DNA from: a virus
Taxonomy: Duplodnaviria; Heunggongvirae; Uroviricota; Caudoviricetes
Virus record (IMG/VR): IMGVR_UViG_2778261303_000009
DNA length: 37,383 bases
Strand: one strand, 5' to 3'
Shown here: piece after piece, positions 1 through 34,219 of the stretch
How positions within the stretch are numbered: the first letter of the stretch is position 1
Layout of the letters: every line of letters starts with the position of its first letter
Notes under the pieces: generated by a model
What the model was told of the DNA's origin: nothing
Seen by the model: the letters and a program-made list of their open reading frames with translations, nothing else
The model's database searches: none
Translations under genes and position numbers: made by a program

Positions 1-1053
1 TTACGGGGTAATGCCAACCGCTGCCGCCACTTTGTCGCCACTTGGCAGCGTTGCCAGAGGATTGAAACGGAGCGCCGTTTCCAGATGGTCCGGTGCCAGA
101 TGTGCGTAACGCATAGTCATTTTTATATCGTGGTGTCCGAGAATTTTTTGTAAGGCCAGAATGTTTCCACCCGACATCATGAAATGCGCCGCAAACGTAT
201 GGCGCAGAACGTGTGTCAGTTGACCGCGAGGGAGCACGATAGACGTTTTTTCCATCACGGATAAAAATTGAAAATAGCAGTCTGTGAAGAAATTGAACCC
301 ATCAAGCGCCATGATCTCTTCGTAAAGCTCTTTACTGATAGGGATGCTTCTGTTTTTCTTCCCCTTCGTTCTTACAAAGGTAATTCGGTATTTGGTCACC
401 TGTGAGCGGGTAAGATTTACGGCTTCTCGCCAGCGTGCGCCTGTGCTTAAGCATATTTTGACTACCAGAGCCAGAATTGGGTCCTGACGTTTGCAATCAG
501 CCAGCAGTTCAACAATCTGCTCATGGGTAAGCCATGCCATCTCTTTTTCTGCGATGGTGAATTTTCGCATGTTCTCCAGTGGGTTCGGATACGACCATTC
601 GCCCAGGCGGGATAGTTCGCTAAAAACACTACTTAGATAGCTTTGCTCCAGGTTAATGGTGACCGGGCTGGCTCCTTTCTTCCATTTCTCGCTGAAGTAG
701 ATCTCACCTGTCAGTCGTTTATCTCGATAATGGGCAAACATTTTAGATGTGAGATCGGTTGCAAGGGGATTGCCCAGAGCGTCAACCATCAGCAGCAATT
801 TGTCATAGACATGCTGCCCAGCAGTCAGAGATTTACCATGTAGTTTGAACCATAGCTCAACCACGTCTTTCAGGGTTCGACGATCCACTGATTCGCCCAG
901 CCAGGGCTTTGATTCGGTTTCTTCCATCGTGTGACGCTCAAAAGCAAGAGCTTCGCCTTTGGTGGCGAATTGTTTACGCACACGACGCCCACTACGTCCG
1001 GCGGGGTAACATTCGCAAAGCCATTTTCCTGTGGTGAGTTTTCGTACTGCCAT
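1..1053 (-). CDS. int: Tyrosine integrase, P2/186 family
   Basis: Minus-strand ORF with N-terminus MAVRKLTTGKWLCECYPAGRSGRRVRKQF and C-terminal catalytic region (HVLRHTFAAHF...MRYAHL). ATG at 1051..1053 is preceded by a GGAGGG RBS; the stop codon is bases 1..3 of the window. Confidence 0.9.
   Translation of the reverse strand: MAVRKLTTGKWLCECYPAGRSGRRVRKQFATKGEALAFERHTMEETESKPWLGESVDRRTLKDVVELWFKLHGKSLTAGQHVYDKLLLMVDALGNPLATDLTSKMFAHYRDKRLTGEIYFSEKWKKGASPVTINLEQSYLSSVFSELSRLGEWSYPNPLENMRKFTIAEKEMAWLTHEQIVELLADCKRQDPILALVVKICLSTGARWREAVNLTRSQVTKYRITFVRTKGKKNRSIPISKELYEEIMALDGFNFFTDCYFQFLSVMEKTSIVLPRGQLTHVLRHTFAAHFMMSGGNILALQKILGHHDIKMTMRYAHLAPDHLETALRFNPLATLPSGDKVAAAVGITP
19..40. repeat. Left copy of putative att core (cgctgccgccaCtttgtcgcca), inside the 3' end of int
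   Basis: 22-bp direct repeat with one mismatch to 34529..34550, which lies immediately after the ogr stop codon. Position matches the P2-family arrangement ogr-attP-int. Confidence 0.5.
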
Positions 1054-1239
1054 AAAAAATACCCTCCAGTGGAGAGTATTTTTGCTGTATATATAACCAG
1101 TGTCAATGTATGAAATCTTGCGACCATACATCTCACTGAAGCCATAATGAAGTTGGCTATTTTTTGCTATGTGAGTATGTGACTTTTGCGGTTAGCCTGC
1201 GGCTCATTGTTATATTAGGCGCAGATATAAAAGCAAAAA

Positions 1240-8010: not shown

Positions 8011-8526
8011 ATGCCTGGGTTAGAAAATGCACAGCAAAATCAAGTTGATGAAATCGTTCCAGCAATGCAAATCGCATTGGTCGAAGAAGATATAGAACAA
8101 CCCATCGCTGCCGAATACCTATACAGCCAGCATATAAGTGCGCTTGTGCCACAATGCCCTCCTGCCGAAGCGACAGAGTGCGATAGAGAATGCTGGCGTT
8201 TTACACTGAATCCTATAAGTCACAACTGCTTTTGGCCTCCAAAAAGAAGATCACCGCAGCGAATTGCTTCCGACGATGCGGAGGAGTGTTCTATGTGGGC
8301 GTTGTCTATGTATGAATCAGAGGCCCAGGCTACAAGAGCCTATACCATGTTAGCGAAGAAGATGAAAAATATCAGAAAAGCTATTGGTGATCACCTTGCT
8401 GTGGGTTCAGTAACCTGTAGTGATGGTAAATGTATGCCTGCTAGCAGAACCGGTCACTTTGATTTTCATCCTTATGTGGATGCGGATTTCGTTAACGGGT
8501 TCCAAGTAATACGAGCATTACCATGA
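8011..8526 (+). CDS. Cargo protein 1 (171 aa, no recognised domain)
   Basis: ATG at 8011 behind an AAGGAG RBS, after an AT-rich promoter-like spacer. First gene of a co-directional three-gene block; stop overlaps the next start (ATGA). Confidence 0.6.
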   Translation: MPGLENAQQNQVDEIVPAMQIALVEEDIEQPIAAEYLYSQHISALVPQCPPAEATECDRECWRFTLNPISHNCFWPPKRRSPQRIASDDAEECSMWALSMYESEAQATRAYTMLAKKMKNIRKAIGDHLAVGSVTCSDGKCMPASRTGHFDFHPYVDADFVNGFQVIRALP

Positions 8527-9614
8527 TAAAATTAGATGCTAGAAGAATAAATGCGTCAACTGTCGGAGATTATTCTTGGTACTCTGACCTCGTATATTTC
8601 GATGGTCCCCTAATTTGCTTGTTTAGAGGAAGCGGATATAAAGATGCTCTTTATGTCTGGCTCGATAATTCGGAGCGTGCCAATCGTTGGTGCTTGATTC
8701 CAGTATCAAGATCTACTTTGGACTCTTATCTTAACCAAAGAATGAGTTTAAGGGAGATTATACAATCGAGCGAATATACATATATCTGCGATCATTTTGC
8801 GGAAACAGGAAGGAAGCACTACAACATTTTGCACGTTGATAGTTTTCCTGAGGAGTATATGCCTGATGAAGATTCATATTTGTATGAAGAAATATGTACT
8901 GATGATGCATTGCTGTTGAAGCAGGAGCGCACCTCCAGTTATATGCTTGGATTAGATAATCAGTTGTTTATAAATGATTTATCTGTAATACCAAAAATTT
9001 TCGAACAGCTCTATTCTTTCCATTACGGATTGGCTCATTTAGGACGGTTGTCGATTAGAAATACCATGTTGCGTCTGATGGGGAATTGGACGGGTGGAAT
9101 ATCAGCAGTAAATATATTTTCAGGGTTGAAAAATGTTATTCCTGTTTTGCATCGACCAGAGATTAGCTCTCTCCAATACAATTCACCGGGGCATATTGAG
9201 TTAAATTTACTTCCTGATTTGGCTCAAAGTGTTCAAGATGCATCTATTCGTGTGAAAAGTGAGCTAGTTTATGACCGTCTGGAGAAAATGTATAAAAATA
9301 CATATGCATACTTCAAGGATAATGGGCTGTCAGGCTTTGATGAAGACGGCGGCATTGAAATTAGAAATATCGATAGTGATACCACCGAAAACCTACGTAA
9401 ACGCGTAAGAATATTTTTTAGATGTTTGGGGTGGTCAAGTTATCAAGCTCAGTTTGATCTGATCGGTGCCCATCCTCTACAACAATTACGTGCTGTGATG
9501 GCCTACTACAGGCGGCTCAAAATCTTGCGTGAATACATTGTCTCCGAGAAGCTTTTTGTTGGTCAGTCTCGGCTGTTACAGCAGCCACAAATTGCTCTGC
9601 CTCCTGAGGATTAG
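8523..9614 (+). CDS. Cargo protein 2 (363 aa, no recognised domain)
   Basis: Translationally coupled to protein 1. AT-rich codon usage unlike the flanking phage genes. Confidence 0.65.
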   Translation: MIKLDARRINASTVGDYSWYSDLVYFDGPLICLFRGSGYKDALYVWLDNSERANRWCLIPVSRSTLDSYLNQRMSLREIIQSSEYTYICDHFAETGRKHYNILHVDSFPEEYMPDEDSYLYEEICTDDALLLKQERTSSYMLGLDNQLFINDLSVIPKIFEQLYSFHYGLAHLGRLSIRNTMLRLMGNWTGGISAVNIFSGLKNVIPVLHRPEISSLQYNSPGHIELNLLPDLAQSVQDASIRVKSELVYDRLEKMYKNTYAYFKDNGLSGFDEDGGIEIRNIDSDTTENLRKRVRIFFRCLGWSSYQAQFDLIGAHPLQQLRAVMAYYRRLKILREYIVSEKLFVGQSRLLQQPQIALPPED

Positions 9615-9631
9615 ATTCTGCGTTATGCTGC

Positions 9632-10972
9632 ATGAATCCGCATGATCGTTTGAGGATCGTTCTAGATGAGGCCCGCCAGCAATGGCGGGCTTTTGCTAAT
9701 GTCATGCTGGCGCATGAAAACCGCTACATAAAGTGGGCAGGCGTGGCGGGGATACGATTGCGCGCTTATTCCAAAACGGCAATAATTAACTTTTCAAAAC
9801 ATCTACCAGGAAAGACAATGCTTATCTGCGAAGACCATATCGTCGAACCAAACGTAAAAAATCATGTTCGTCTGCAAACTGACAACAACATTTGTGTGTT
9901 TTGTAATGCTGTTACAAAATGCCTAGATACTGATTCGATAGAAGCTCGAAATTTGCTAAAAGCAATCTTACGTTATAACTTTGATGAAGTTCTCTATAAT
10001 ACACATATTGGTGGTGACTATTTCCCAGGTTTTTTATTAGCAGATGATTATATATTTTGCAGGGATATCCAAAGTTACGCTGAAGCATTTACTGATCTTG
10101 ATAGTGAAATATGGAGTATGGGGTTCACAACTGCAGGTGAGATTGATATACATTCAGGACATGATCAAGATGGCATGATGAATATGCCGCTTATGTCAAT
10201 TATTAACTCATATCATCCATTTATAGGAAAATTATCTAAGAAACTTGCTGAAGTAAATTACCATGAGTTTGAAGATGAATTGAGGGATATCATTAAAGAT
10301 TATGGGAATTCTTTTGCCAAAATAATTGAGGGTGGTTCTGTAGTTTATCGTGCTCGCGTAGGGACTGCTGGTTATAAAAAAGCTCATGAAGATTTTAACT
10401 ATGAAGGGAAGAAAATATTCGTTCCATACAAAAATAAAGAAATAGGTTCTGTTCCTCCTCTTAAAGCAACGGCAGGTAGAGCTAATAGAGTCGGGGTTTC
10501 ATACTTATATTGCGCGACTGATAGCTATACAGCGATCGCTGAGGTGAGACCTCATCCTACAGATGTAGTTTCTTTAGGTAAATTTAGCGTATCGCGAGCT
10601 TTAAAAGTATTCGATTTTTCATATCCAAACTTATTAGACTTTATCGAAAATGGCGATACTTTATTGAGAATGATTCCTTACGCTAAAATGGCGGGTATTT
10701 ATAATACCGCTACACCCCCCTCTTTGGAAGGAAGGTATAGTGTTTCGCAGCTCATATCTGACTGCATAAGAAAGGAAGGATACGATGGCATACAGTTTTC
10801 AAGCACTGTTGGTGAAGGGAAAAATTTAGTTGTGTTTAATCCTAGTTACATGGAATTTATTGAGGGGAGTTCAACGGTAATTGAAATTGACAAGGTACAA
10901 TATACATACAAAGAAAAACAAGTAGTAGGGATGAATGATCAGTGGGAGATTTATTATAATGAAGTTGAATAG
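9632..10972 (+). CDS. Cargo protein 3 (446 aa): N-terminal Cys/His-containing region plus C-terminal RES-like domain
   Basis: C-terminal half carries RES-domain-like motifs: VVYRARVG, then AGRANRVGVSYLYCATDSYTAIAEVRPH (GRxN...LYxA...AxxE), then GYDGIQFSSTVGEGKNLVVFNP (DGIxxxS...N.VVF). The start codon is uncertain because the RBS is weak. Confidence 0.65.
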   Translation: MNPHDRLRIVLDEARQQWRAFANVMLAHENRYIKWAGVAGIRLRAYSKTAIINFSKHLPGKTMLICEDHIVEPNVKNHVRLQTDNNICVFCNAVTKCLDTDSIEARNLLKAILRYNFDEVLYNTHIGGDYFPGFLLADDYIFCRDIQSYAEAFTDLDSEIWSMGFTTAGEIDIHSGHDQDGMMNMPLMSIINSYHPFIGKLSKKLAEVNYHEFEDELRDIIKDYGNSFAKIIEGGSVVYRARVGTAGYKKAHEDFNYEGKKIFVPYKNKEIGSVPPLKATAGRANRVGVSYLYCATDSYTAIAEVRPHPTDVVSLGKFSVSRALKVFDFSYPNLLDFIENGDTLLRMIPYAKMAGIYNTATPPSLEGRYSVSQLISDCIRKEGYDGIQFSSTVGEGKNLVVFNPSYMEFIEGSSTVIEIDKVQYTYKEKQVVGMNDQWEIYYNEVE

Positions 10973-19442: not shown

Positions 19443-21197
19443 TCAATCCCAAAATAAATTATTATTAATATTGCTCATATCGAAAGTGAAGTTCTTTTCT
19501 GTAATAGTTTCGTACCTTTGTTCATAGATTATTTTTACATATCTAAACCCCTGTGTTACAGAGCGAATTTTTCGGGGTTTTGATGCAAGCATAACAAGTA
19601 TTTCAAATACTTTATCAAGATAGTTGTGGGTGTGTTCAACTAAAAGGGGGGTAAATTTACCACCTTTTCCAGAATGGACTATGTTATTTCTTGTTCTATA
19701 AATTCTTCTGAGTTGCCATTCTAATCTTAACTTATGGTTATCTAAAGTTGATTTAATTGACTCCGGGGATGAAACTATGTTTTTTATATACTCGAAACGA
19801 TCTGAAAGCAATGTGTAATCACGAAATTTAGCGGATAAAGATTCCCTTACTGATTCGTATTCAGGAAGAATCATTATATTGGCTAGTTTGTGTTTCGCTT
19901 TTGCTCCAGGTATTCCTTTTAAATGTGAGTTTAGCATGTGCCTATTCCATAACAGCAGGTCTCGAGTAAGGTTGTCAATTAAGGAGTCTATATATGTAAT
20001 ATTCAGGAATGGAATTATACTTGCAGTAATATGTTCTATTGTTGCTTGATCCTTGGATTTAGTGTCTGTCGGCACTAATGATTCAAGAGCTATCCATAGA
20101 TTTAAAAGCTGATTTTCAACATTTTCACTTTTTAATGCCATTGAATGTAATTGAATACTTCTCAAGAACTTGGCAAATGAACTATTTTCTAGAGAAAACT
20201 CAGACATCAATGATTCAAGACGTTTCTTGGCCTTTTCATGCTTTAAGTCCTTGCATTTTTTCATGGGGTTAAGTCTTTCAGCCACTTTCAAAGAGTCTGT
20301 ATCAGTTATAACGAAAGCTTCATTTGACCAAGTAGGTTTATCTTTATGATGATAAATATTTAAAAAGGATGATGCTAATTTAAGTAGGTTTTCAGCATTC
20401 TCTCTTGCTGAATAAGAATCAAAAGCTTCTATATTTGATACGCAAACTATCTTCTTTCTTTGCAGATTTCTAAAAAAAACATGTTGGGAAAATTCTTCTG
20501 GTGGTTCTTTCTCAACAGACAAAGAGAGTCTTTCGAAAGTTGGCTCGGCGCCTAAAAACACTGGTTCAACAATAAAATATATTTTGTATTTCTTTTTTTC
20601 GAGTTTTATTAAATCAAAAAAAGAAGAGACATCAGTGTTATTTGAGATTTTATTATTCCCATAATAAAAAAATTGCTGGGTTAAATTCTTAAGATTATGT
20701 TGGCTAAAGCCAATGTAGAGTAATAAGCTGATATAATTTCTTGTTAGCTTGCGTATGATGCTTCTTTCCCAGTTTGGGGATGATAACTCTTGGGTGATAA
20801 GTTCTTCACTTTTTTCTTTATATAATTTGGGTGGTAATTGAATGACCAGCATTTCAATTATTGAGCTTCTCTCTTTAGGGCTTATGTTAGTATTTTTTAG
20901 TTTGTTGAGAAAAGCTTGGTAAGCATCGCCTAATAAATGTTGTGCTACTTTATCACATGACAAGTTATGTATTAATTCTGCGGTTAAATGTTCAATATTT
21001 TTAGGCTGAATAATACCATCCTCAACATCTTTAATTGTATTTAAAGTTTCTATTCCAATTGTTGGGGTATTCATCACTGAGGGTTTGTATGTGTCCAGTG
21101 TATAGTCAAATAGCATTTCATCCAGTAATTGCGCAAAATATACTAGTGCTTTACAAGTGTCTGGGCAATCCCATTTATACAAAGAACGAAATTTCAT
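19443..21197 (-). CDS. Cargo protein (584 aa) with C-terminal HEPN-type RNxxxH motif; candidate abortive-infection RNase
   Basis: Very AT-rich ORF antisense to the late operon, between S and V. Near the C-terminus, LEWQLRRIYRTRNNIVHSGKGG contains RNNIVH (R-N-x3-H), encoded at 19674..19691. Confidence 0.65.
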   Translation of the reverse strand: MKFRSLYKWDCPDTCKALVYFAQLLDEMLFDYTLDTYKPSVMNTPTIGIETLNTIKDVEDGIIQPKNIEHLTAELIHNLSCDKVAQHLLGDAYQAFLNKLKNTNISPKERSSIIEMLVIQLPPKLYKEKSEELITQELSSPNWERSIIRKLTRNYISLLLYIGFSQHNLKNLTQQFFYYGNNKISNNTDVSSFFDLIKLEKKKYKIYFIVEPVFLGAEPTFERLSLSVEKEPPEEFSQHVFFRNLQRKKIVCVSNIEAFDSYSARENAENLLKLASSFLNIYHHKDKPTWSNEAFVITDTDSLKVAERLNPMKKCKDLKHEKAKKRLESLMSEFSLENSSFAKFLRSIQLHSMALKSENVENQLLNLWIALESLVPTDTKSKDQATIEHITASIIPFLNITYIDSLIDNLTRDLLLWNRHMLNSHLKGIPGAKAKHKLANIMILPEYESVRESLSAKFRDYTLLSDRFEYIKNIVSSPESIKSTLDNHKLRLEWQLRRIYRTRNNIVHSGKGGKFTPLLVEHTHNYLDKVFEILVMLASKPRKIRSVTQGFRYVKIIYEQRYETITEKNFTFDMSNINNNLFWD

Positions 21198-22212: not shown

Positions 22213-23107
22213 CCTTTCGCAGTTGCCTGCACCGCAGATTGTGGATGTGCCGGACTTTGAGACGCTGCTTGCCGAACGCAAGGCAGAATTTGTGGCGCTT
22301 CATCCGAAAGATGAGCAGGAAGCAGTGATGCGTACGCTGGAACTGGAATCTGAACCCGTCACTAAATTGTTGCAGGAGAACGCTTATCGTGAGTTGCTCC
22401 TGCGCCAGCGCATTAACGAAGCCGCGCAGGCTGTGATGGTGGCTTATGCCATAGGGAGCGATCTGGACCAGCTCGCTGCCAATTACAACGTGAAACGCCT
22501 GACGGTGACGCCTGCTGATAATGACGCTGTACCGCCCGTTGCGGCTGTGATGGAAAGTGATGAAGCGTTACGCCTGCGTGTGCCTGCAGCCTTTGAAGGG
22601 CTTTCAGTTGCGGGGCCAACTGCAGCTTATGAATTTCATGCCCGAAGCGCCGACGGTCGGGTGGCGGATGCCAGTGCAACCAGCCCGGCACCTGCAGAGG
22701 TGGTGCTGACTGTCCTTAGCCGCGAAGGCGATGGAACTGCAGAAAAAGACCTGCTGGACGTGGTGGAAAAAGCTCTGAACAGTGAGAACGTCCGCCCGGT
22801 GGCTGACCGTCTGACGGTTCGCAGCGCAGAAATCATCCCGTATCGCGTGGAAGCCACCATTTTTCTCTATCCGGGACCGGAAGCAGAGCCGGTAATGGCA
22901 GCGGCAAAAGCCAGCCTGCAGAAGTACATCGCCAGTCAGACGCGTCTTGGTCGGGATATTCGCCGTAGCGCCATCTTTGCCGCCCTGCATGTTGAGGGTG
23001 TGCAGCGTGTGGAGCTGGCTTCTCCTCTGGCGGATATGGTCCTGAACAAAACACAGGCGGCATCATGTACGCAGTGGAGCGTAACCAACGGAGGAACGGA
23101 TGAATAG
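22199..23107 (+). CDS. J: Baseplate assembly protein (P2 gpJ-like)
   Basis: ATG at 22199 behind an AGGAG RBS. N-terminus MAVIDLSQLPAPQIVDVPDFETLLAERKA... matches gpJ. Confidence 0.85.
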   Translation: MAVIDLSQLPAPQIVDVPDFETLLAERKAEFVALHPKDEQEAVMRTLELESEPVTKLLQENAYRELLLRQRINEAAQAVMVAYAIGSDLDQLAANYNVKRLTVTPADNDAVPPVAAVMESDEALRLRVPAAFEGLSVAGPTAAYEFHARSADGRVADASATSPAPAEVVLTVLSREGDGTAEKDLLDVVEKALNSENVRPVADRLTVRSAEIIPYRVEATIFLYPGPEAEPVMAAAKASLQKYIASQTRLGRDIRRSAIFAALHVEGVQRVELASPLADMVLNKTQAASCTQWSVTNGGTDE

Positions 23108-23705
23108 TTTGCTGCCACCGGGTTCAACACCACTGGAGCGCCGACTGGCGCAAACCTGCAGCGGGATTTCTGATCTGCAGGTGCCGCTTCGTGACTTGTG
23201 GAATCCGGCGACCTGTCCGGTCAGTTTCCTGCCTTATCTCGCCTGGGCGTTCTCTGTTGATCGCTGGGACGAGGACTGGACAGAAAGTGTCAAGCGCCAG
23301 GTGGTGAAGGATGCTTTTTATATTCATCAGCATAAAGGGACCACCAGTGCCGTGCGGCGGGTGGTGGAGCCGTTCGGCTTTCTGATCCGCATTATTGAGT
23401 GGTGGCAGACCGGAGAGACACCGGGCACGTTTCGTCTGGATATCGGCGTGCAGGACCAGGGCATCACTGAAGATACCTATCTGGAACTTGAGCGACTGAT
23501 AAGCGATGCCAAACCATGCAGCCGTCACATGATCGGCATGTCCATCAACCTGCAGACCAGCGGCCCGCATTGGGTAGGAGCCGCCAGCTATCTTGGCGAA
23601 GAAATCACGATCTATCCGTATATCAACGAAACAATTATTTCCGGCGGCACCGCGCATGAAGGCGGGGCGGTCCATGTTATTGACACAATGAGAGTGAATC
23701 CATGA
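23100..23705 (+). CDS. I: Baseplate assembly protein (P2 gpI-like)
   Basis: N-terminus MNSLLPPGSTPLERRLA... matches gpI. GGAGG RBS upstream. Confidence 0.8.
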   Translation: MNSLLPPGSTPLERRLAQTCSGISDLQVPLRDLWNPATCPVSFLPYLAWAFSVDRWDEDWTESVKRQVVKDAFYIHQHKGTTSAVRRVVEPFGFLIRIIEWWQTGETPGTFRLDIGVQDQGITEDTYLELERLISDAKPCSRHMIGMSINLQTSGPHWVGAASYLGEEITIYPYINETIISGGTAHEGGAVHVIDTMRVNP

Positions 23706-25243
23706 GCACAAAATTTTATACCCTGCTGACGGATATTGGCGCGGCGAAACTTGCCAGCGCCGCCGCGCTCGGTGTGCCTTTAAAAATTACCCATATGGCG
23801 GTCGGCGATGGCGGCGGAGTATTGCCAACGCCGGATGCAAAGCAGACTGCACTGGTGAATGAGAAACGCCGGGCTGCGCTGAATATGCTCTATATCGACC
23901 CGCAGAACAGTAGCCAGATTATTGCTGAACAGGTGATCCCTGAAAATGAGGGCGGTTGGTGGATACGTGAAGTGGGCCTGTTTGATGAGTCCGGGGCATT
24001 GATTGCCGTGGGAAACTGCCCGGAAAGCTATAAGCCGCAACTGGCTGAAGGCAGTGGGCGTACCCAGACCGTGCGCATGGTGCTGATTACCAGCAGCACG
24101 GACAATATCACCCTGAAAATCGACCCTGCCGTCGTGCTGGCAACCCGCAAGTATGTGGATGACAAGGTACTGGAGCTGAAGGTGTTCGTGGATGATAAGA
24201 TGGCAAAACATCTTGCCGCACCGGACCCGCATTCACAGTATGCACCCAAAGAAAGCCCGACATTGACCGGAACACCCAAAGCGCCAACGCCAGCGGAGGG
24301 GAATAACACCACGCAGATTGCGACCACCGCGTTTGTTCAGGCGGCACTGATGGCCCTTATTAATGGTGCGCCAGCCACACTGGATACGCTGAAAGAAATT
24401 GCCGCTGCCATTAATAATGACCCGAAATTCAGTACCACCATTAACAATGCGCTGGCACTGAAAGCGCCGCTGTCGAGTCCGGCACTCACCGGAACGCCAA
24501 CAGCACCTACTGCGGCACAGTCGGTCAACAATACACAGATTGCCACCACGGCATTTGTGAAATCGGCGATTGCGGCAATGGTGGGTTCTGCACCTGCGGC
24601 ACTGGATACACTGAACGAACTGGCGGCGGCACTGGGGAATGATCCGAACTTTGCCACGACAATGCTTAATGCGCTGTCAGGTAAACAACCGCTGGACAAT
24701 ACGCTTACCAATTTGAGTGGAAAGGATGTAGCTGGTCTTCTCACATACCTTGGTTTGGGAGAAGGCTCTGCATTACCTGTTGGTGTGCCTGTTCCGTGGC
24801 CTTCCGCCACTCCGCCGACAGGCTGGCTGAAATGCAATGGTGCGGCTTTTTCTGCTGAAGAATACCCGGAACTGGCAAAGGCTTACCCGACAAATAAATT
24901 GCCTGATTTACGCGGTGAGTTTATTCGTGGCTGGGATGACGGACGTGGAGTGGATAACGGAAGGGGATTATTAACGCTTCAGGACGGTGCGATTGTCAGT
25001 CATAACCACTATTGGGGAATCTGGACTTCACGAACTAACGACCAGACTCTGGAAAGTTTTACAGGCACCACGATTTTAAAACAAATCACGCCCCTGTCTC
25101 CGGCCATTGACTTCGATAATTACCCAATTCCCAACCCGGCTATTACAGAGGGTGGTGTTGTTGCGGCAACGACTAAACCTGCAGGTGCGAATGAAACACG
25201 CCCACGAAATGTCGCTTTTAACTATATTGTGAGGGCTGCATAA
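23702..25243 (+). CDS. H: Tail fibre protein (P2 gpH-like) with invertible C-terminal host-range domain
   Basis: 513-aa ORF with repeated tail-fibre motifs (TGTPKAPTPAEGNNTTQIATTAFV / TGTPTAPTAAQSVNNTQIATTAFV) and a C-terminal tail-collar-like segment (LPDLRGEFIRGWDDGRGVD). A recombinase crossover site lies at codons about 346-354. Confidence 0.85.
   Translation: MSTKFYTLLTDIGAAKLASAAALGVPLKITHMAVGDGGGVLPTPDAKQTALVNEKRRAALNMLYIDPQNSSQIIAEQVIPENEGGWWIREVGLFDESGALIAVGNCPESYKPQLAEGSGRTQTVRMVLITSSTDNITLKIDPAVVLATRKYVDDKVLELKVFVDDKMAKHLAAPDPHSQYAPKESPTLTGTPKAPTPAEGNNTTQIATTAFVQAALMALINGAPATLDTLKEIAAAINNDPKFSTTINNALALKAPLSSPALTGTPTAPTAAQSVNNTQIATTAFVKSAIAAMVGSAPAALDTLNELAAALGNDPNFATTMLNALSGKQPLDNTLTNLSGKDVAGLLTYLGLGEGSALPVGVPVPWPSATPPTGWLKCNGAAFSAEEYPELAKAYPTNKLPDLRGEFIRGWDDGRGVDNGRGLLTLQDGAIVSHNHYWGIWTSRTNDQTLESFTGTTILKQITPLSPAIDFDNYPIPNPAITEGGVVAATTKPAGANETRPRNVAFNYIVRAA
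24738..24763. repeat. Left invertase crossover site (ttctcacatacc-tt-ggtttgggagaa) inside H
   Basis: 26-bp imperfect palindrome with central TT. Its right half, ttggtttgggagaa (24750..24763), is a perfect 14-bp inverted repeat of 26592..26605. Confidence 0.55.
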
Positions 25244-25845
25244 TGAATAACGCAGAATTAAACAGTGAATTAATTGCCACTATGGCAGGAGAAATTACTG
25301 TTTATAACTTTGATGTCATGAGTCGGGAATATATTTCAGCTTCAACTGAATATCTTGCTATTGGTGTCGGCATTCCGGCATATTCCTGTTTAGATGCCCC
25401 AGGCGCATACAAAGCTGGTTATGCAATCTGCCGATCTGCAGATTTTAACTCATGGGAATATGTGCCAGACCATCGCGGTGAAATCATCTTTAGCACCGAA
25501 ACAGGAGAATCAAAAGAAATCACAGTTCCGGGTGATTACCCTGATAATACAACCACTATCGCCCCGTTAACGCCATACGATAAATGGGATGGTGAGAAAT
25601 GGGTGGCGGATACCGAAGCACAGCATAACGCCGCAGTAGATGCAGCAGAAGCACAGCGCCAGTCACTGATTGATGCTGCAATGGCTTCCATTAGTCTGAT
25701 TCAGCTGAAATTACAGGCCGGACGGAAGTTGACGCAGGCAGAAACCACCCGACTTAACGCCGTGTTGGATTACATTGACGCGGTGGCGGCAACAGATACC
25801 AGCACCGCGCCGGATGTCATCTGGCCTGAACTGCCGGAGACGTAG
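25243..25845 (+). CDS. G: Tail fibre assembly chaperone (P2 gpG-like)
   Basis: 200-aa ORF starting at the H stop (TAATG). C-terminal motif DTSTAPDVIWPELP is shared with the alternative chaperone. Confidence 0.8.
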   Translation: MNNAELNSELIATMAGEITVYNFDVMSREYISASTEYLAIGVGIPAYSCLDAPGAYKAGYAICRSADFNSWEYVPDHRGEIIFSTETGESKEITVPGDYPDNTTTIAPLTPYDKWDGEKWVADTEAQHNAAVDAAEAQRQSLIDAAMASISLIQLKLQAGRKLTQAETTRLNAVLDYIDAVAATDTSTAPDVIWPELPET

Positions 25846-26254
25846 GCCATTCAATATCTGGAGCACTGGAGGTATCAACCAGTTCCAGTGCGTCCAGATA
25901 ATCCAGCCACAAATTATATTGCGCCAGTTCCTCACCTTTCAGACGACCAATAGCGGCTTTACCGGGCCATTGTTTACTGTTCATGTATTCGTTGGCCTGA
26001 TTAAGCAATAATTGCCTTTCTGATTCTGCCTGTTGAATAAGTTCTTCATATGATGGTGGAGGTATTAGTGCCCATGTGGGTAATCCATTTTTTCCTGCAA
26101 CACGAATTTTGTCATCTGGGGGCGTATTGATTGCAAATTCATTATAAACATCATCACTGACAGCCAGAGCATCATCTGGCCATGAATTTGCATTAATGTA
26201 ATCATCCTTAAGCGCAGGATTCACAAAAATGTTTAAAGATGGACTATAAAACAT
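25817..26254 (-). CDS. Alternative tail fibre assembly chaperone (expressed after inversion)
   Basis: 145-aa minus-strand ORF with C-terminal DTSSAPDIEWP, paralogous to the G C-terminus. Start lies 1 bp after the stop of the alternative fibre cassette (TAATATG arrangement). Confidence 0.6.
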   Translation of the reverse strand: MFYSPSLNIFVNPALKDDYINANSWPDDALAVSDDVYNEFAINTPPDDKIRVAGKNGLPTWALIPPPSYEELIQQAESERQLLLNQANEYMNSKQWPGKAAIGRLKGEELAQYNLWLDYLDALELVDTSSAPDIEWPTSPAVQAR

Positions 26255-26255
26255 A

Positions 26256-26604
26256 TTAAACCCCTATAGCGATATAACGACCTAATACAGCATTTGCAGC
26301 AGTCGCTATGCTTGAAAAACCGCGGAACTGATTTGATGTAATTGCAGAAGCCGACAGGATTCCTGCGCCTGAAGGTGTATGCCCCACATGACTAACTATC
26401 ATCCCATAACATGCTGACGGAAAGGCAAAAGGAAAATCATTAAGATATCCGGCATCTTCACCACCAGACCCACCAAATCTCGCCTGCCCCCACTGAATAA
26501 TCAGTGTTCTCCGGGAACCTGAAATAATTAACGGAATCGTTACATACCCATTCAGGCCAATGACACCCGATGCAGTGCCAGCCAGAGATAATTCTCCCAA
26601 ACCA
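26256..26604 (-). other. Promoterless alternative tail-fibre C-terminal cassette (fuses to constant part of H after inversion)
   Basis: Minus-strand reading frame is open from the crossover site (encoding ...GLGE...) to a stop at 26256. The ATG at 26645 is probably fortuitous. Confidence 0.5.
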
Positions 26605-26617
26605 ACGTTTAAGAAAA
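26592..26617. repeat. Right invertase crossover site (ttctcccaaacc-aa-cgtttaagaaaa)
   Basis: 26-bp imperfect palindrome with central AA, resembling hix/gix-type sites. 21/26 identical to the reverse complement of the left site; located 55 bp upstream of the invertase start. Confidence 0.55.
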
Positions 26618-26672
26618 TGCAGAGATAATGGCTAACTGGCATCATCCCCGGTTTTTATTCAGGGGATTGATC

Positions 26673-27239
26673 ATGCTTATTGGCTATGTACGCGTGTCAA
26701 CAAATGACCAGAACACCGATTTGCAACGTAATGCACTGAACTGCGCGGGATGTGAGCGGATTTTTGAGGATAAAATCAGTGGCACTAAGTCCGACAGACC
26801 GGGGCTTAAAAAACTGCTCAGGATACTATCGGCAGGAGACACGCTGGTTGTCTGGAAGCTGGACAGACTGGGGCGCAGTATGCGGCATCTTGTTACGCTG
26901 ATAGAAGAGTTGCGCCAGCGTGGTGTGAATTTCCGAAGCCTGACTGACAGTATTGATACCAGTACCTCAATGGGCCGTTTCTTTTTTCACGTCATGGGGG
27001 CTCTGGCTGAAATGGAACGTGAACTGATAGTTGAACGTACCAGAGCAGGGCTGGCTGCAGCTCGTGCCAAAGGCAGAGTAGGTGGACGTCGTCCTAAATT
27101 GACCACCGAACAGTGGGCACAGATTGGACGTTTACTCGAGGCCGGAGAATCAAGACAGCGTATTGCACTGATTTTTGATGTGGGCGTTTCTACCATTTAT
27201 AGAAAATTTCCGGCGAATGAGAGCAATGAATTGCCCTGA
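26673..27239 (+). CDS. Serine DNA invertase (Hin/Gin/Cin/Pin family)
   Basis: N-terminus MLIGYVRVSTNDQNTDLQRNAL with catalytic serine, resolvase domain and C-terminal HTH (GRRPKLTTEQWAQIGRLLEAG). ATG at 26673 behind an AGGGGA RBS. Confidence 0.85.
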   Translation: MLIGYVRVSTNDQNTDLQRNALNCAGCERIFEDKISGTKSDRPGLKKLLRILSAGDTLVVWKLDRLGRSMRHLVTLIEELRQRGVNFRSLTDSIDTSTSMGRFFFHVMGALAEMERELIVERTRAGLAAARAKGRVGGRRPKLTTEQWAQIGRLLEAGESRQRIALIFDVGVSTIYRKFPANESNELP

Positions 27240-27287
27240 GTCAGTATTATTTTGATTTTTCCTGTAAGCGGACAAATACCGTCATTT

Positions 27288-27305
27288 TGTGTGAATAACG
27301 ACACA
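27288..27305. promoter_or_regulatory. TGT-N12-ACA dyad (late-activator site) upstream of the FI tail operon
   Basis: TGTGTGAATAACGACACA lies about 85 bp upstream of the FI ATG, in the intergenic region after the invertase. Confidence 0.35.
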
Positions 27306-27381
27306 ACTGCGCTTAGCTGTTTGTCAGGCACAATCACTTCAACATAGGGCGAAGCCTAATCCAATCAGGAGGTTCGCCACT

Positions 27382-28554
27382 ATGGCTCAGGATTACCACC
27401 ACGGGGTGCGCGTTGTTGAAGTCAACGAAGGCACCCGATCCATTACCACGGTGAGCACCGCCATCGTGGGTATGGTCTGCACGGGCGATGATGCCGATGC
27501 AAAAATGTTTCCTCTTAATAAACCCGTGCTGATCACTGATGTGCTGACTGCCAGCGGTAAAGCGGGTGAGTCCGGCACGCTGGCCCGTTCGCTGGATGCC
27601 ATCGCTGACCAGGCAAAACCAGTGACCGTTGTTGTGCGTGTGCCGCAGGGTGAAACGGAAGAAGAAACCACGACCAATATCATCGGCGCAGTGACTGCTG
27701 AAGGTAAAAAAACAGGCATGAAAGCCCTGTTATCTGCCCAGACACAGCTCGGCGTTAAACCGCGCATTCTCGGCGTGCCAGGTCACGATAACAAAGCCGT
27801 TGCTACTGAGTTGCTGAGCGTGGCGCAAAGCCTGCGTGGGTTTGCCTACCTGTCAGCGTATGGCTGCAAGACGGTACAGGAGGCGATCACTTACCGTGAA
27901 AACTTCAGCCAGCGCGAAGGAATGTTGATCTGGCCTGACTTTACTGGCTGGGATACGGTGCTGAATGCCGAAGCAACGGCATATGCCACTGCTCGTGCGC
28001 TTGGTCTGCGTGCCAAAATTGATGAGCAGACCGGGTGGCACAAAAGCCTGTCCAACGTGGGCGTGAACGGTGTCACCGGAATTTCTGCAGATGTGTTCTG
28101 GGATCTGCAGGACCCGGCAACCGATGCAGGTCTGCTGAACCAGAACGACGTCACCACGCTTGTGCGTAAAGACGGGTTCCGCTTCTGGGGTTCCCGCTGC
28201 CTGAGCGATGACCCGCTCTTTGCCTTCGAAAACTATACCCGCACGGCGCAGGTGCTGACGGACACAATGGCAGAAGCGCACATGTGGGCAGTGGACAAAC
28301 CGCTGAACCCGTCGCTGGCGCGCGACATCATCGAGGGCATCCGCGCCAAAATGCGCAGCCTGGTCAGTCAGGGGTATCTCATTGGTGGTGATTGCTGGCT
28401 GGACGAGTCGGTGAACGACAAAGACACTCTGAAAGCCGGAAAACTCACCATCGACTACGACTACACGCCAGTGCCGCCACTTGAAAACCTGATGTTGCGT
28501 CAGCGCATCACCGATCAGTACCTGGTGAATTTCGCCAGCCAGGTCAGCGCGTAA
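27382..28554 (+). CDS. FI: Contractile tail sheath protein (P2 gpFI-like)
   Basis: 390-aa ORF, N-terminus [22 protein letters not shown]... typical of gpFI. AGGAGG RBS upstream. Confidence 0.9.
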
Positions 28555-32640: not shown

Positions 32641-33122
32641 TGATGGTGCTGGGATTGTACGTGTTTATGCTGCGCACCGTGCCGTATCAGGAACTGCAGT
32701 ATCAACGCAGCTGGCGACATGCGGCAAACCGCCGGATAAACCGACGTCCGTCCACGCAGTTTCTGGGACCGGAAAACGACATGCTGACGCTTTCCGGTGT
32801 TCTTATGCCGGATATAACAGGCGGCAGGCTGTCGTTGCTGGCTCTGGAGCAGATGGCAGAACAGGGGAAAGCATGGCCCCTGATTGAAGGTAGCGGCACG
32901 ATTTACGGCATGTATGTGATTGAGGGACTGAATCAGACTAAAACGGAGTTTTTCCGAGACGGTATGCCGCGCCGGATTGAGTTCACCCTGTCGCTCAAAC
33001 GGGTGGATGAATCCCTGTCCGATATGTTCGGTGATCTCAGTTCGCAGATGAATAAGCTGCAGGACACGGCAACATCTGCATTAAGCGATATCAGTAAAAC
33101 TGTGGGAGGACTGCTGTCGTGA
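32637..33122 (+). CDS. U: Tail protein (P2 gpU-like)
   Basis: 161-aa ORF with start overlapping the T stop (ATGA). Confidence 0.85.
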   Translation: MMMVLGLYVFMLRTVPYQELQYQRSWRHAANRRINRRPSTQFLGPENDMLTLSGVLMPDITGGRLSLLALEQMAEQGKAWPLIEGSGTIYGMYVIEGLNQTKTEFFRDGMPRRIEFTLSLKRVDESLSDMFGDLSSQMNKLQDTATSALSDISKTVGGLLS

Positions 33123-34219
33123 ATTTCAGCTCTGAACTGCTTAGCAAAGGCAACAAAACTCCCGCATTCAGCATAAGTATTGAGGGGAAGGATATCACCA
33201 CTGTGCTGGATAACCGCCTGATGAGTCTGACGCTGATGGACAATCGGGGCTTTGAAGCAGACCAGCTTGATCTGGAGCTGGACGACGCCGACGGAAAAAT
33301 CGTGCTGCCGCGCCGTGGTGCGGTCATCACGCTGGCGCTGGGCTGGAAGGGGCAGCCGCTTTTTCCGAAAGGGGCATTCACGGTGGACGAAATTGAACAC
33401 ACTGGCGCACCGGATCGCCTGACTATTCGGGCGCGAAGTGCTGATTTTAGGGAAACGCTGAATACCCGCCGTGAAAAATCGTGGCACAAGACCACTGTCG
33501 GGGAAGTGGTGAAGGAAATAGCCGCGCGTCACAAGCTGAAGATGGCACTGGGTAAAGATCTGTCGGATAAGCCCGTGGAGCATATAGACCAGACTAATGA
33601 GAGTGACGGCAGTTTTCTGATGCGGCTGGCGCGCCAGTACGGTGCCATAGCGTCGGTGAAAAATGGCAATCTGTTATTCATCCGGCAGGGACAGGGCAAA
33701 AGCGCCAGCGGTAAACCACTACCGGTGATCTCTATCACACGTAAGGACGGCGACAGTCACCGCTTTACCCTGGCAGATCGCGGAGCCTATACGGGTGTAA
33801 TTGCCAGCTGGTTGCATACCCGCGAACCCGCGAAGAAAGAAAGCACTACGGTGAAGCGTAAGCGCAGGACTAAGAAGCAGAAGAAAGAGCCGGAAGCGAA
33901 GCAGGGAGATTACCTGGTGGGTACGGATGAAAACGTGCTGGTACTTAATCGCACTTATGCCAACCGGAGCAACGCTGAACGGGCAGCGAAAATGCAGTGG
34001 GAACGCCTGCAACGCGGCGTTGCGTCATTCTCGCTACAACTGGCAGAAGGTCGGGCAGATCTCTACACGGAAATGCCAGTGAAAGTCAGTGGCTTTAAAC
34101 AGCCGATAGATGATGCGGAATGGACCATTACGACTCTGACACATACCGTCAGCCCGGATAACGGTTTTACGACCAGTCTGGAGCTTGAAGTGAGGATTGA
34201 TGATTTCGAAATGGAGTGA
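33119..34219 (+). CDS. D: Tail protein (P2 gpD-like)
   Basis: 366-aa ORF with a GTG start behind a GGGAGG RBS, overlapping the U stop. Last gene of the tail operon. Confidence 0.85.
   Translation: MNFSSELLSKGNKTPAFSISIEGKDITTVLDNRLMSLTLMDNRGFEADQLDLELDDADGKIVLPRRGAVITLALGWKGQPLFPKGAFTVDEIEHTGAPDRLTIRARSADFRETLNTRREKSWHKTTVGEVVKEIAARHKLKMALGKDLSDKPVEHIDQTNESDGSFLMRLARQYGAIASVKNGNLLFIRQGQGKSASGKPLPVISITRKDGDSHRFTLADRGAYTGVIASWLHTREPAKKESTTVKRKRRTKKQKKEPEAKQGDYLVGTDENVLVLNRTYANRSNAERAAKMQWERLQRGVASFSLQLAEGRADLYTEMPVKVSGFKQPIDDAEWTITTLTHTVSPDNGFTTSLELEVRIDDFEME

Follow-up and report, generated by a model that had tools for sequence, protein, structure and literature searches.

The described systems closest to the locus reported here are the P segment of e14 (a cryptic prophage of E. 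coli K-12) with its invertase PinE, the G segment of phage Mu with Gin, and the C segment of phage P1 with Cin. The window, by which we mean the whole stretch of 37,383 nt that was analysed, contains a locus with the same topology as that of e14: a fibre constant part, a tip with its chaperone, an inverted chaperone and tip, a crossover site, and an invertase gene. The e14 pix sites have the same 14-bp core as the sites found here, with the right site one base off. The convergent chaperone genes share the same 29-bp overlap, and an StfE-like tip is common to both loci. However, e14 is a defective lambdoid remnant, while the module here is carried by a P2-like myovirus prophage that is apparently complete. 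The fibre shaft here is of the P2 H type, unlike that of e14, and the second cassette is distant from e14 StfP and TfaP (36% and 51%, respectively, the latter being the identity of the alternative chaperone to TfaP in the C-terminal part).

The Mu G segment has the same order, S(c+v) U / U' S'v / gixR / gin, with the invertase gene downstream of the segment and outside it. Its sites are also 26 bp long, with the half-site form TTnYCnnAAACC. It differs in the length of the segment (about 3 kb), in the central dinucleotide (TC/GA rather than the TT/AA found here), in its tips, and in the virion family. In P1, the core of cixL, CCTTGGTTTAAGAGAA, has a TT centre as here, but cin lies on the opposite side, with cixL overlapping its 3' end, and the segment is about 4.2 kb. 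The enzyme family is also that of the Hin/hix flagellar switch of Salmonella, whose site type is like that of the present locus, as its Fis/enhancer logic probably is. However, Hin is encoded inside its own segment and flips a promoter, while here the enzyme is encoded outside and a flip would exchange coding 3' ends.

Among P2-like phages, invertible fibre loci are found in EPEC E2348/69, Fels-2, pro483, Cartapus, and 500465-1. These belong to the same phage family and have the same G-FI location, and the present locus differs from them only in its particular cassette pairing. In one EPEC prophage there are three sites, with four variants, against the two sites of the window. Phase variation inside P2-like prophages of EPEC E2348/69 was demonstrated by sequencing and PCR (PMC4272514), and in Salmonella Fels-2, which has the pin homologue STM2702, inversion between LT2 and LT7 has been reported (PMC7953296). 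The finding is therefore already known, as a feature of many P2-like prophages (PMC4272514, PMC7953296, bioRxiv 10.1101/2024.10.15.618418).

Our analysis indicates that the locus is very probably a Gin/Cin/Pin-type (Din family) site-specific inversion switch, by which a P2-like E. coli prophage would alternate between two fibre tips (Table 1). The carrier is a P2-like (Peduovirus) prophage of E. coli integrated beside ybjL. The ORF map and the domains gave the gene order of P2 (int/C, Q-P-O-N-M-L, V-W-J-I-H-G, FI-FII-E-T-U-D, and ogr), the prophage is syntenic with the annotated UPEC-245U prophage and with P2, and the best phage matches of the window are Peduovirus. The full structural gene set is present, and the prophage is apparently complete. 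A tRNA scan of the window was negative, which leaves no tRNA as an attachment site within it. In P2 itself the G-FI junction is occupied by fun(Z), without an invertase; here the switch module takes this place. The TGT-N12-ACA sequence upstream of FI is of the type of element bound by the P2 late activator Ogr; its presence there places the invertase gene after the V operon and ahead of the F operon.

Table 1. Features of the inversion locus and its surroundings (positions in the window).
Feature	Position	Strand	Remarks
Hc, N-terminal portion of tail-fibre gene H, constant	23702-24749	+	N-terminal domain Phage_tail_fib (Pfam; E 7e-65) at residues 1-150
Left crossover site, pix/cix-like, 26 bp	24738-24763		Central TT at 24750-24751; inside H, codons L-G-L-G-E
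Invertible segment, about 1854 bp	24751-26604		Limits are the centres of the two crossover sites
Hv, variable C-terminus of H, currently expressed, Collar tip	24764-25243	+	Pfam Collar, E 3.7e-15
G, assembly chaperone for the current tip, TfaE-like	25243-25845	+	Pfam Caudo_TAP, E 2.4e-31
G', alternative chaperone, silent in the present orientation	25817-26254	-	Pfam Caudo_TAP, E 3.1e-33
Hv', alternative C-terminus of H, Gp53-like tip without its own start	26256-26591	-	Pfam Gp53-like_C, E 1.3e-12
Right crossover site, 26 bp	26592-26617		Central AA at 26604-26605
Serine DNA invertase, 188 aa, outside the invertible segment	26673-27239	+	Pfam Resolvase, E 2.3e-52; HTH_7, E 1.3e-15
Putative Fis-dependent recombinational enhancer	26691-26762	+	nt 19-90 of the invertase gene
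TGT-N12-ACA element upstream of FI	27288-27305	+	Read from the sequence; P2 pF activator site annotated at the corresponding position

The invertase is 85% identical to e14 PinE, 78.6% identical to P1 Cin at the protein level, and about 78% identical to Mu Gin (structures 3uj3 and 4m6f; E 3.5e-91 to 3uj3). Its identity to a phage homologue (Cartapus) is up to 98%. It scored 307 bits to Gin but only 123 bits to gamma-delta resolvase. Its N-terminus, MLIGYVRVSTNDQNTDLQRNAL, is identical to that of Gin, its HTH domain matches the Hin structure 1hcr, and the catalytic Ser9 is intact, with a codon that is invariant in six aligned genes. By these sequence comparisons the recombinase is classified as a Gin/Cin/Pin-type (Din family) serine invertase and not as a resolvase. 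In NCBIfam, neither the invertase nor any tip or chaperone reached the cut-off of a model.

The candidate enhancer contains two Fis-like 15-mers, at nt 22-36 (26694-26708) and nt 71-85 (26743-26757) of the invertase gene, and it agrees at 56 of its 72 positions with the enhancer annotated within P1 cin. Synonymous conservation, compared post hoc over five sequences, was 0.58 in the candidate enhancer and 0.46 in the rest of the gene (p=0.013). It was 0.78 in the two Fis-like patches (p=0.001; patches also picked post hoc, five sequences). Judged from its sequence, the region is probably a Fis-dependent enhancer. Mutation of H106 or M114 renders Gin Fis-independent, and both residues are wild type in the invertase, an indirect hint that the switch may depend on Fis.

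The two crossover sites are the arms of the top-ranked inverted repeat of positions 23000-28500 (26 nt, 81% complementary). They share a perfect 14-nt core, TTGGTTTGGGAGAA, located at 24750-24763, with its reverse complement at 26592-26605. Each arm alone is an imperfect palindrome, TTCTCACATACC-TT-GGTTTGGGAGAA on the left and TTCTCCCAAACC-AA-CGTTTAAGAAAA on the right. The sites are mutually inverted, and their asymmetric central dinucleotides are complementary (TT vs AA). The end of the right site is 55 bp from the invertase ATG (26673).

In 36% of dinucleotide shuffles, the window yielded a perfect inverted repeat of 14 nt with its arms within 3 kb. The unshuffled sequence has four loci of this kind; besides the one at the crossover sites, they lie at 22893/24400, 28500/30558, and 30718/32341. 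The bare 14-bp repeat is weak evidence, within chance expectation. Since the repeat alone is non-significant, our argument is based on an independent consensus, TTNYYNNAAACCNNGGTTTNNRRNAA, and the context also counts. This consensus was derived only from Mu gixL/gixR and P1 cixL, and <=3 mismatches were allowed. Its matches in the window were these two sites alone, with 1 mismatch each, where 0.15 matches were expected; two matches were found in 0/100 shuffles. It also matched precisely the expected site pair in all the invertase-bearing loci retrieved. An idealised palindrome pattern, likewise with <=3 mismatches, recovered the left site alone and was superseded by the Mu/P1-derived one. No third crossover site was found in the whole window with the consensus at <=3 mismatches. 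A multiple-inversion or shufflon reading was rejected, as there are only two consensus sites and the recombinase is of the serine type, not the tyrosine type.

Between the sites lie two cassettes in opposite directions, and Hc is joined to whichever of them points toward it. In the present orientation the ORF of gene H extends from 23702 to 25243 (513 aa). Its variable end has 58% identity to e14 StfE and is near-identical to it across the first ~77 residues, and the chaperone G is 86% identical to e14 TfaE. G' and G overlap tail to tail by 29 bp. Both minus strand ORFs are intact, and the reading frame of Hv' is that of Hc; the ATG at 26645 that is listed for the Hv' ORF is probably spurious, being beyond the crossover site. 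A flip simulated in silico gave an in-frame fusion of Hc and Hv', with an H of 465 aa, and strain N32 has this 465-aa fusion as an annotated, intact CDS. Among isolated phages, the minus strand tip had only matches of <47% identity; the tip does occur in E. coli prophages. A simple promoter scan (24600-27450) found no sigma-70-like promoter of the invertase. In the promoter and terminator scan of this region as a whole, counts did not exceed those of shuffles, and there was no convincing element for either the invertase or the minus strand cassette. This result is compatible with a promoterless minus strand cassette and is otherwise uninformative.

The first-pass annotation of this DNA had already read the locus as an invertible fibre switch, and our results agree with its architecture. 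The coordinates of the perfect repeat were verified, as were the positions of the two sites, one inside H at the GLGE codons and the other just upstream of the invertase gene. Their description as hix/gix-like palindromes with central TT and AA is borne out by the gix/cix/pix consensus. The Pfam domains agree with its account of the segment, namely the variable end of H and a chaperone on the plus strand and an alternative tip and chaperone on the minus strand. The proposed replacement of the H end by the alternative tip is in frame with Hc. The assignment of the enzyme to the Hin/Gin/Pin family is matched by its Resolvase and HTH_7 domains and its intact Ser9, and the placing of the switch at the Z/fun position of P2, which lacks it, by the comparison with P2.

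In complete E. coli genomes, the module was found arranged as in the window in 33 and flipped in 19. Some part of the module was matched in 3098 of 5426 such genomes, a count that takes in e14-type and other Pin-type loci. With these loci included, the matching genomes had a median of two module-matching places each and a maximum of eleven. The closest relative has 99.0% identity across the module. Strain ATCC 8739 has been deposited in both states (NZ_CP033020.1 vs NC_010468.1). Breakpoint mapping by DNA alignment showed that the two assemblies differ by an exact inversion of a 1855-bp homologous segment, 100% identical as the reverse complement, with the junctions exchanged inside TTGGTTTGGGAGA, that is, within the shared homologous core. 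CE10 and N32 have the window's own cassette pair in opposite orientations, and their chaperone, invertase, and sheath proteins are identical. In phage pro483, the Collar and TfaE cassette occupies the silent position. Both orientations are thus documented for the module and for the same cassette pair, the breakpoints lying in the core. Two observations had been named beforehand as counting against a switch, a missing inverted form and a mutated catalytic Ser in relatives. Neither was seen: deposited genomes show both orientations, even between two assemblies of a single strain, and Ser9 is invariant in all aligned relatives. We infer the flipping of this very prophage from these close relatives; any rate at which it would flip is presumed.

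In the mechanism that we propose, invertase dimers would bind both 26-bp sites, and host Fis on the enhancer within the 5' end of the invertase gene would lead to an invertasome. Ser9 would cleave both sites at the central TT/AA, and subunit rotation and religation would leave about 1854 bp (24751-26604) inverted. The late V-operon transcript would always cross Hc. As oriented at present, it would run on into the Collar tip and the TfaE-like chaperone, and in the flipped orientation it would run on in frame into the Gp53-like tip and its chaperone. A lysogen population could then give virions of two receptor specificities. Since Collar and Gp53-like_C are unrelated Pfam families, a different specificity is likely, and inversion may change the host range.

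It is very unlikely that the locus is a frozen relic, which descended from an inversion switch but flips no longer and keeps its minus strand cassette as a silent fossil. The causes considered were weak or no expression of the invertase, a defective right site, and a defective enhancer. The outer half of the right site (CGTTTAAGAAAA) does deviate from the ideal palindrome, no promoter-like site was seen upstream of the invertase in the scan, and stfE of K-12 e14 is annotated as a pseudogene. However, e14, whose flipping is documented (PMC4272514, PMC12529663), has a right site one base different from the present one. The ORF of the invertase is intact and keeps all conserved motifs, both minus strand ORFs are also intact, and the same cassette pair is present in both orientations among near-identical prophages.

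Even less probable is a switch that serves the host and is selected mainly in the lysogen, for example through a post-inversion tip protein that blocks the adsorption of other phages. There is a published precedent, as e14 StfE2, produced via PinQ-driven inversion, has been reported to block phage adsorption (PMC12529663). The present sites are almost those of e14, and the plus strand tip resembles StfE to the extent given above. But H is a gene of the late V operon, the prophage appears to be complete, and H should be silent in the lysogen. A function in the virion also suits a tip that is paired with a chaperone and joined in frame to a full-length shaft. A chance inverted repeat beside an unrelated resolvase gene, such as Z/fun hotspot cargo without a fibre role, has practically no probability left: perfect 14-nt repeats are common in shuffled windows and invertase genes are common mobile hotspot cargo (bioRxiv 10.1101/2024.10.15.618418), but the consensus matches at these two places only, the frames agree, and the exact inversions of relatives terminate in the core, by which this reading is already refuted.

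The fibre-tip inversion switch may also have partners. Its sites are nearly those of e14 pix and the matching genomes have a median of two module-matching loci, so the prophage invertase could flip e14-type segments in trans, and vice versa. We consider it unlikely that the switch belongs to such a cross-talking network with a role in the lysogen. If it did, the StfE-like tip could help block T-even phage adsorption, as reported for PinQ/StfE2, and the shared sites could be junctions for tip exchange between unrelated prophages.

For annotation, the H' fragment and the listed 203-aa invertase ORF are misleading, the true units being a start-less fusion partner and a 188-aa invertase. Whichever orientation of such a prophage has been deposited is a single snapshot from a mixed population, and lysates of this lysogen would be expected to hold two receptor specificities. 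Beyond this, the locus brings no principle that is new, being one more instance of a module widespread in E. coli and an ordinary example of the Gin/Cin/Pin type.

Our analysis indicated that the window holds an apparently complete P2-like prophage, which adjoins the E. coli genes ybjL, ybjM and grxA, while the DNA 3′ of the prophage genes is host DNA with 99.9% identity to E. coli. After the CI repressor gene, the structural genes follow in P2 order up to D.

Features of the prophage and of its invertible tail-fibre module
Feature	Position	Strand	Remark
Integrase gene	1-1131	-	runs off window start
CI repressor	1447-2022
P2 old/tin hotspot	8011-10972	+
PD-T4-10 A	8011-8526
PD-T4-10 B	8523-9614
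RES-domain protein	9632-10972
584-aa ORF	19443-21197	-
Tail-fibre gene H	23702-25243		Phage_tail_fib N-terminal and Collar C-terminal domains
Left crossover site (putative)	24738-24763
Caudo_TAP chaperone	25243-25845
Overlap of chaperone 3′ ends	25817-25845		29 bp
Second Caudo_TAP gene	25817-26254	-
Fibre-tip fragment	26256 to about 26605	-	Gp53-like_C
Right crossover site (putative)	26592-26617
Terminator-like hairpin and T-run	26634-26653	+
Invertase gene	26673-27239		Resolvase and HTH_7
TGT-N12-ACA element	27288-27305
Tail sheath gene FI	from 27382
Gene D	33119-34219

In the old/tin hotspot, which separates the gpA-like replication gene from the portal gene, we found the defence pair PD-T4-10 (PADLOC E 1e-75 for A and 1e-172 for B), followed by a 446-aa RES-domain protein (Pfam RES E 2.9e-18) that had no PADLOC match. 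An AAA ATPase and an HNH endonuclease occupy this spot instead in a 99%-similar prophage of UPEC-245U. The 584-aa ORF lies on the opposite strand, with the tail-completion/S genes on one side and baseplate gene V on the other; it had no Pfam hit and only a weak PADLOC match to ApeA (E 1.2e-12), limited to the last 200 residues. In the UPEC-245U relative this place is taken by a different gene (DUF5677), which suggests a further cargo hotspot.

The top inverted repeat in the region 23000-28500 consists of the two 26-nt sites, whose sequences are 81% complementary and share a 14-nt core forming a perfect inverted repeat. Both are imperfect palindromes, with the central dinucleotide TT in the left site and AA in the right, as the first-pass annotation had described. 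The bare 14-nt repeat is statistically unimpressive, for when the window was shuffled with its dinucleotides preserved, 36% of the shuffles had a perfect one within 3 kb. Three more perfect inverted repeats of 14-15 nt whose arms lie within 3 kb of each other were found (22893/24400, 28500/30558 and 30718/32341); their number was within the shuffle range, and none of the three matched the crossover-site consensus. This degenerate consensus was derived only from Mu gixL, Mu gixR and P1 cixL, taken from GenBank records. It matched the 37 kb exactly twice, at the left and right sites, with one mismatch each; 0.15 matches were expected by chance, and no shuffle had two. When applied to e14 and every invertase-bearing relative fetched, it returned exactly the expected pair. 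At the sequence level, this match to an independent Mu/P1 pattern is the decisive test for the putative sites, and it agrees with their earlier assignment to the hix/gix type.

The left site encodes the codons L-G-L-G-E of H, and these codons, again in frame, also open the tip fragment on the - strand. In silico inversion of 24751-26604 produced an uninterrupted 465-aa H ending in the Gp53-like tip, with the second chaperone directly after it. Two start codons in a mechanical ORF list are probably artefacts. For the tip fragment the list gives ATG 26645, a position beyond the invertible segment; for the invertase it gives ATG 26628, which would yield 203 aa and precedes the Gin-like start at 26673.

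The 188-aa invertase matched Gin crystal-structure sequences with E 3.5e-91 and gamma-delta resolvase with E 1.4e-34, and was 78.6% identical to P1 Cin and 85% to e14 PinE. Its residues 1-22, including Ser9, are identical to those of Gin. The Ser9 codon is invariant, and the mutated catalytic Ser that the first-pass annotation had considered was seen in none of the six aligned genes. Mutations at H106 and M114 of Gin relieve Fis dependence; both residues are wild type here. Nucleotides 19-90 of the gene were identical at 56 of 72 positions to the enhancer annotated inside P1 cin. At amino-acid-invariant codons, third-position conservation was 0.58 in this stretch vs 0.46 in the rest of the gene (Mann-Whitney p=0.013), and it was highest, at 0.78 (p=0.001; post hoc choice), in two Fis-like 15-mers spaced by about 49 bp. 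These data support, short of proof, a putative Fis-bound enhancer inside the gene. The hairpin, placed after the right site and before the start codon of the invertase, might reduce read-through transcription of the gene. In Mu it is not conserved.

Searches of 5426 complete E. coli genomes with the as-found arrangement and a synthetic flipped version found the former in 33 and the latter in 19 genomes at a coverage of at least 80%. Strain ATCC 8739 has been deposited in both states (NZ_CP033020.1 vs NC_010468.1) with identical flanks; the inner 1855 bp of one match the reverse complement of the other at 100% identity, and both junctions are swapped inside the common TTGGTTTGGGAGA core. Strain CE10 has the window's very cassette pair in window-like order, and strain N32 has it flipped; their chaperone, invertase and sheath proteins have identical accessions, and H of N32 is intact at 465 aa. 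In phage pro483, the silent position beside the invertase is occupied by the Collar+TfaE cassette. Both orientations occur naturally, with breakpoints in the core, and therefore the proposed inversion is not refuted by any absence of the inverted form. Some part of the module matched in 3098 of the 5426 genomes, e14-type and other Pin-type loci included, at a median of two and a maximum of eleven places per genome; several potentially cross-compatible invertase systems therefore often coexist in one cell.

The topology is that of Mu (S-U/U'-S'-gixR-gin) and of e14 (stfP-tfaP/tfaE-stfE-pinE). The closest relative is e14, which has the same 14-bp core and a right site differing at one base; its TfaE is 86% identical to the window's chaperone and its tip is near-identical over about the first 77 residues. 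The identical 29-bp tail-to-tail chaperone overlap is annotated in e14 (tfaP/tfaE), pro483, ATCC 8739, CE10 and N32. Between G and FI, P2 carries fun(Z) on the - strand; it lacks an invertase, in line with the first-pass annotation. One gix-like 26-mer, TTATCGAATATCTCGGTTTACAGGAA (AF063097 13857-13882), is present at the constant/variable junction of P2 H and matches Mu gixL at 23 of 26 positions. P2 has neither a partner site nor an invertase for it, and it appears to be a remnant of an earlier switch or of exchanged tips. Goldberg et al. detected phase variation, and confirmed it by PCR, in a two-site and a three-site P2-like prophage of EPEC E2348/69 (PMC4272514). A Fels-2 fibre inversion between LT2 and LT7 has been attributed to the pin homologue of this prophage (PMC7953296), and a hotspot survey found that the P2 Z/fun locus often carries a DNA invertase with inversion of adjacent genes (bioRxiv 10.1101/2024.10.15.618418).

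The anatomy, the reading frames and the family membership of enzyme and sites were observed directly. By analogy with Gin, Hin and Cin, an invertasome would assemble from invertase dimers bound at both sites and Fis bound at the enhancer; in it, Ser9 would make 2-nt staggered cuts at the site centre, followed by subunit rotation and religation. Judging from context, H would be transcribed with the late V operon, and the TGT-N12-ACA element downstream of the invertase may, by comparison with P2, mark the F-operon late promoter, so that only the cassette facing the constant part of H would be expressed. A lysate would then contain two receptor specificities. The two tips likely differ in specificity because they belong to unrelated Pfam families (Collar and Gp53-like_C).

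The first-pass annotation was correct in both observation and interpretation. What it described is a textbook fibre switch of the Din family; its location and phage group are known, and the feature therefore counts as already known. A defence role has been reported for PinQ/StfE2 (PMC12529663). The only mildly novel reading left concerns the lysogen: e14-type segments would be targets of the invertase in trans, and the tip would have a PinQ/StfE2-like defence role. We consider this reading improbable.
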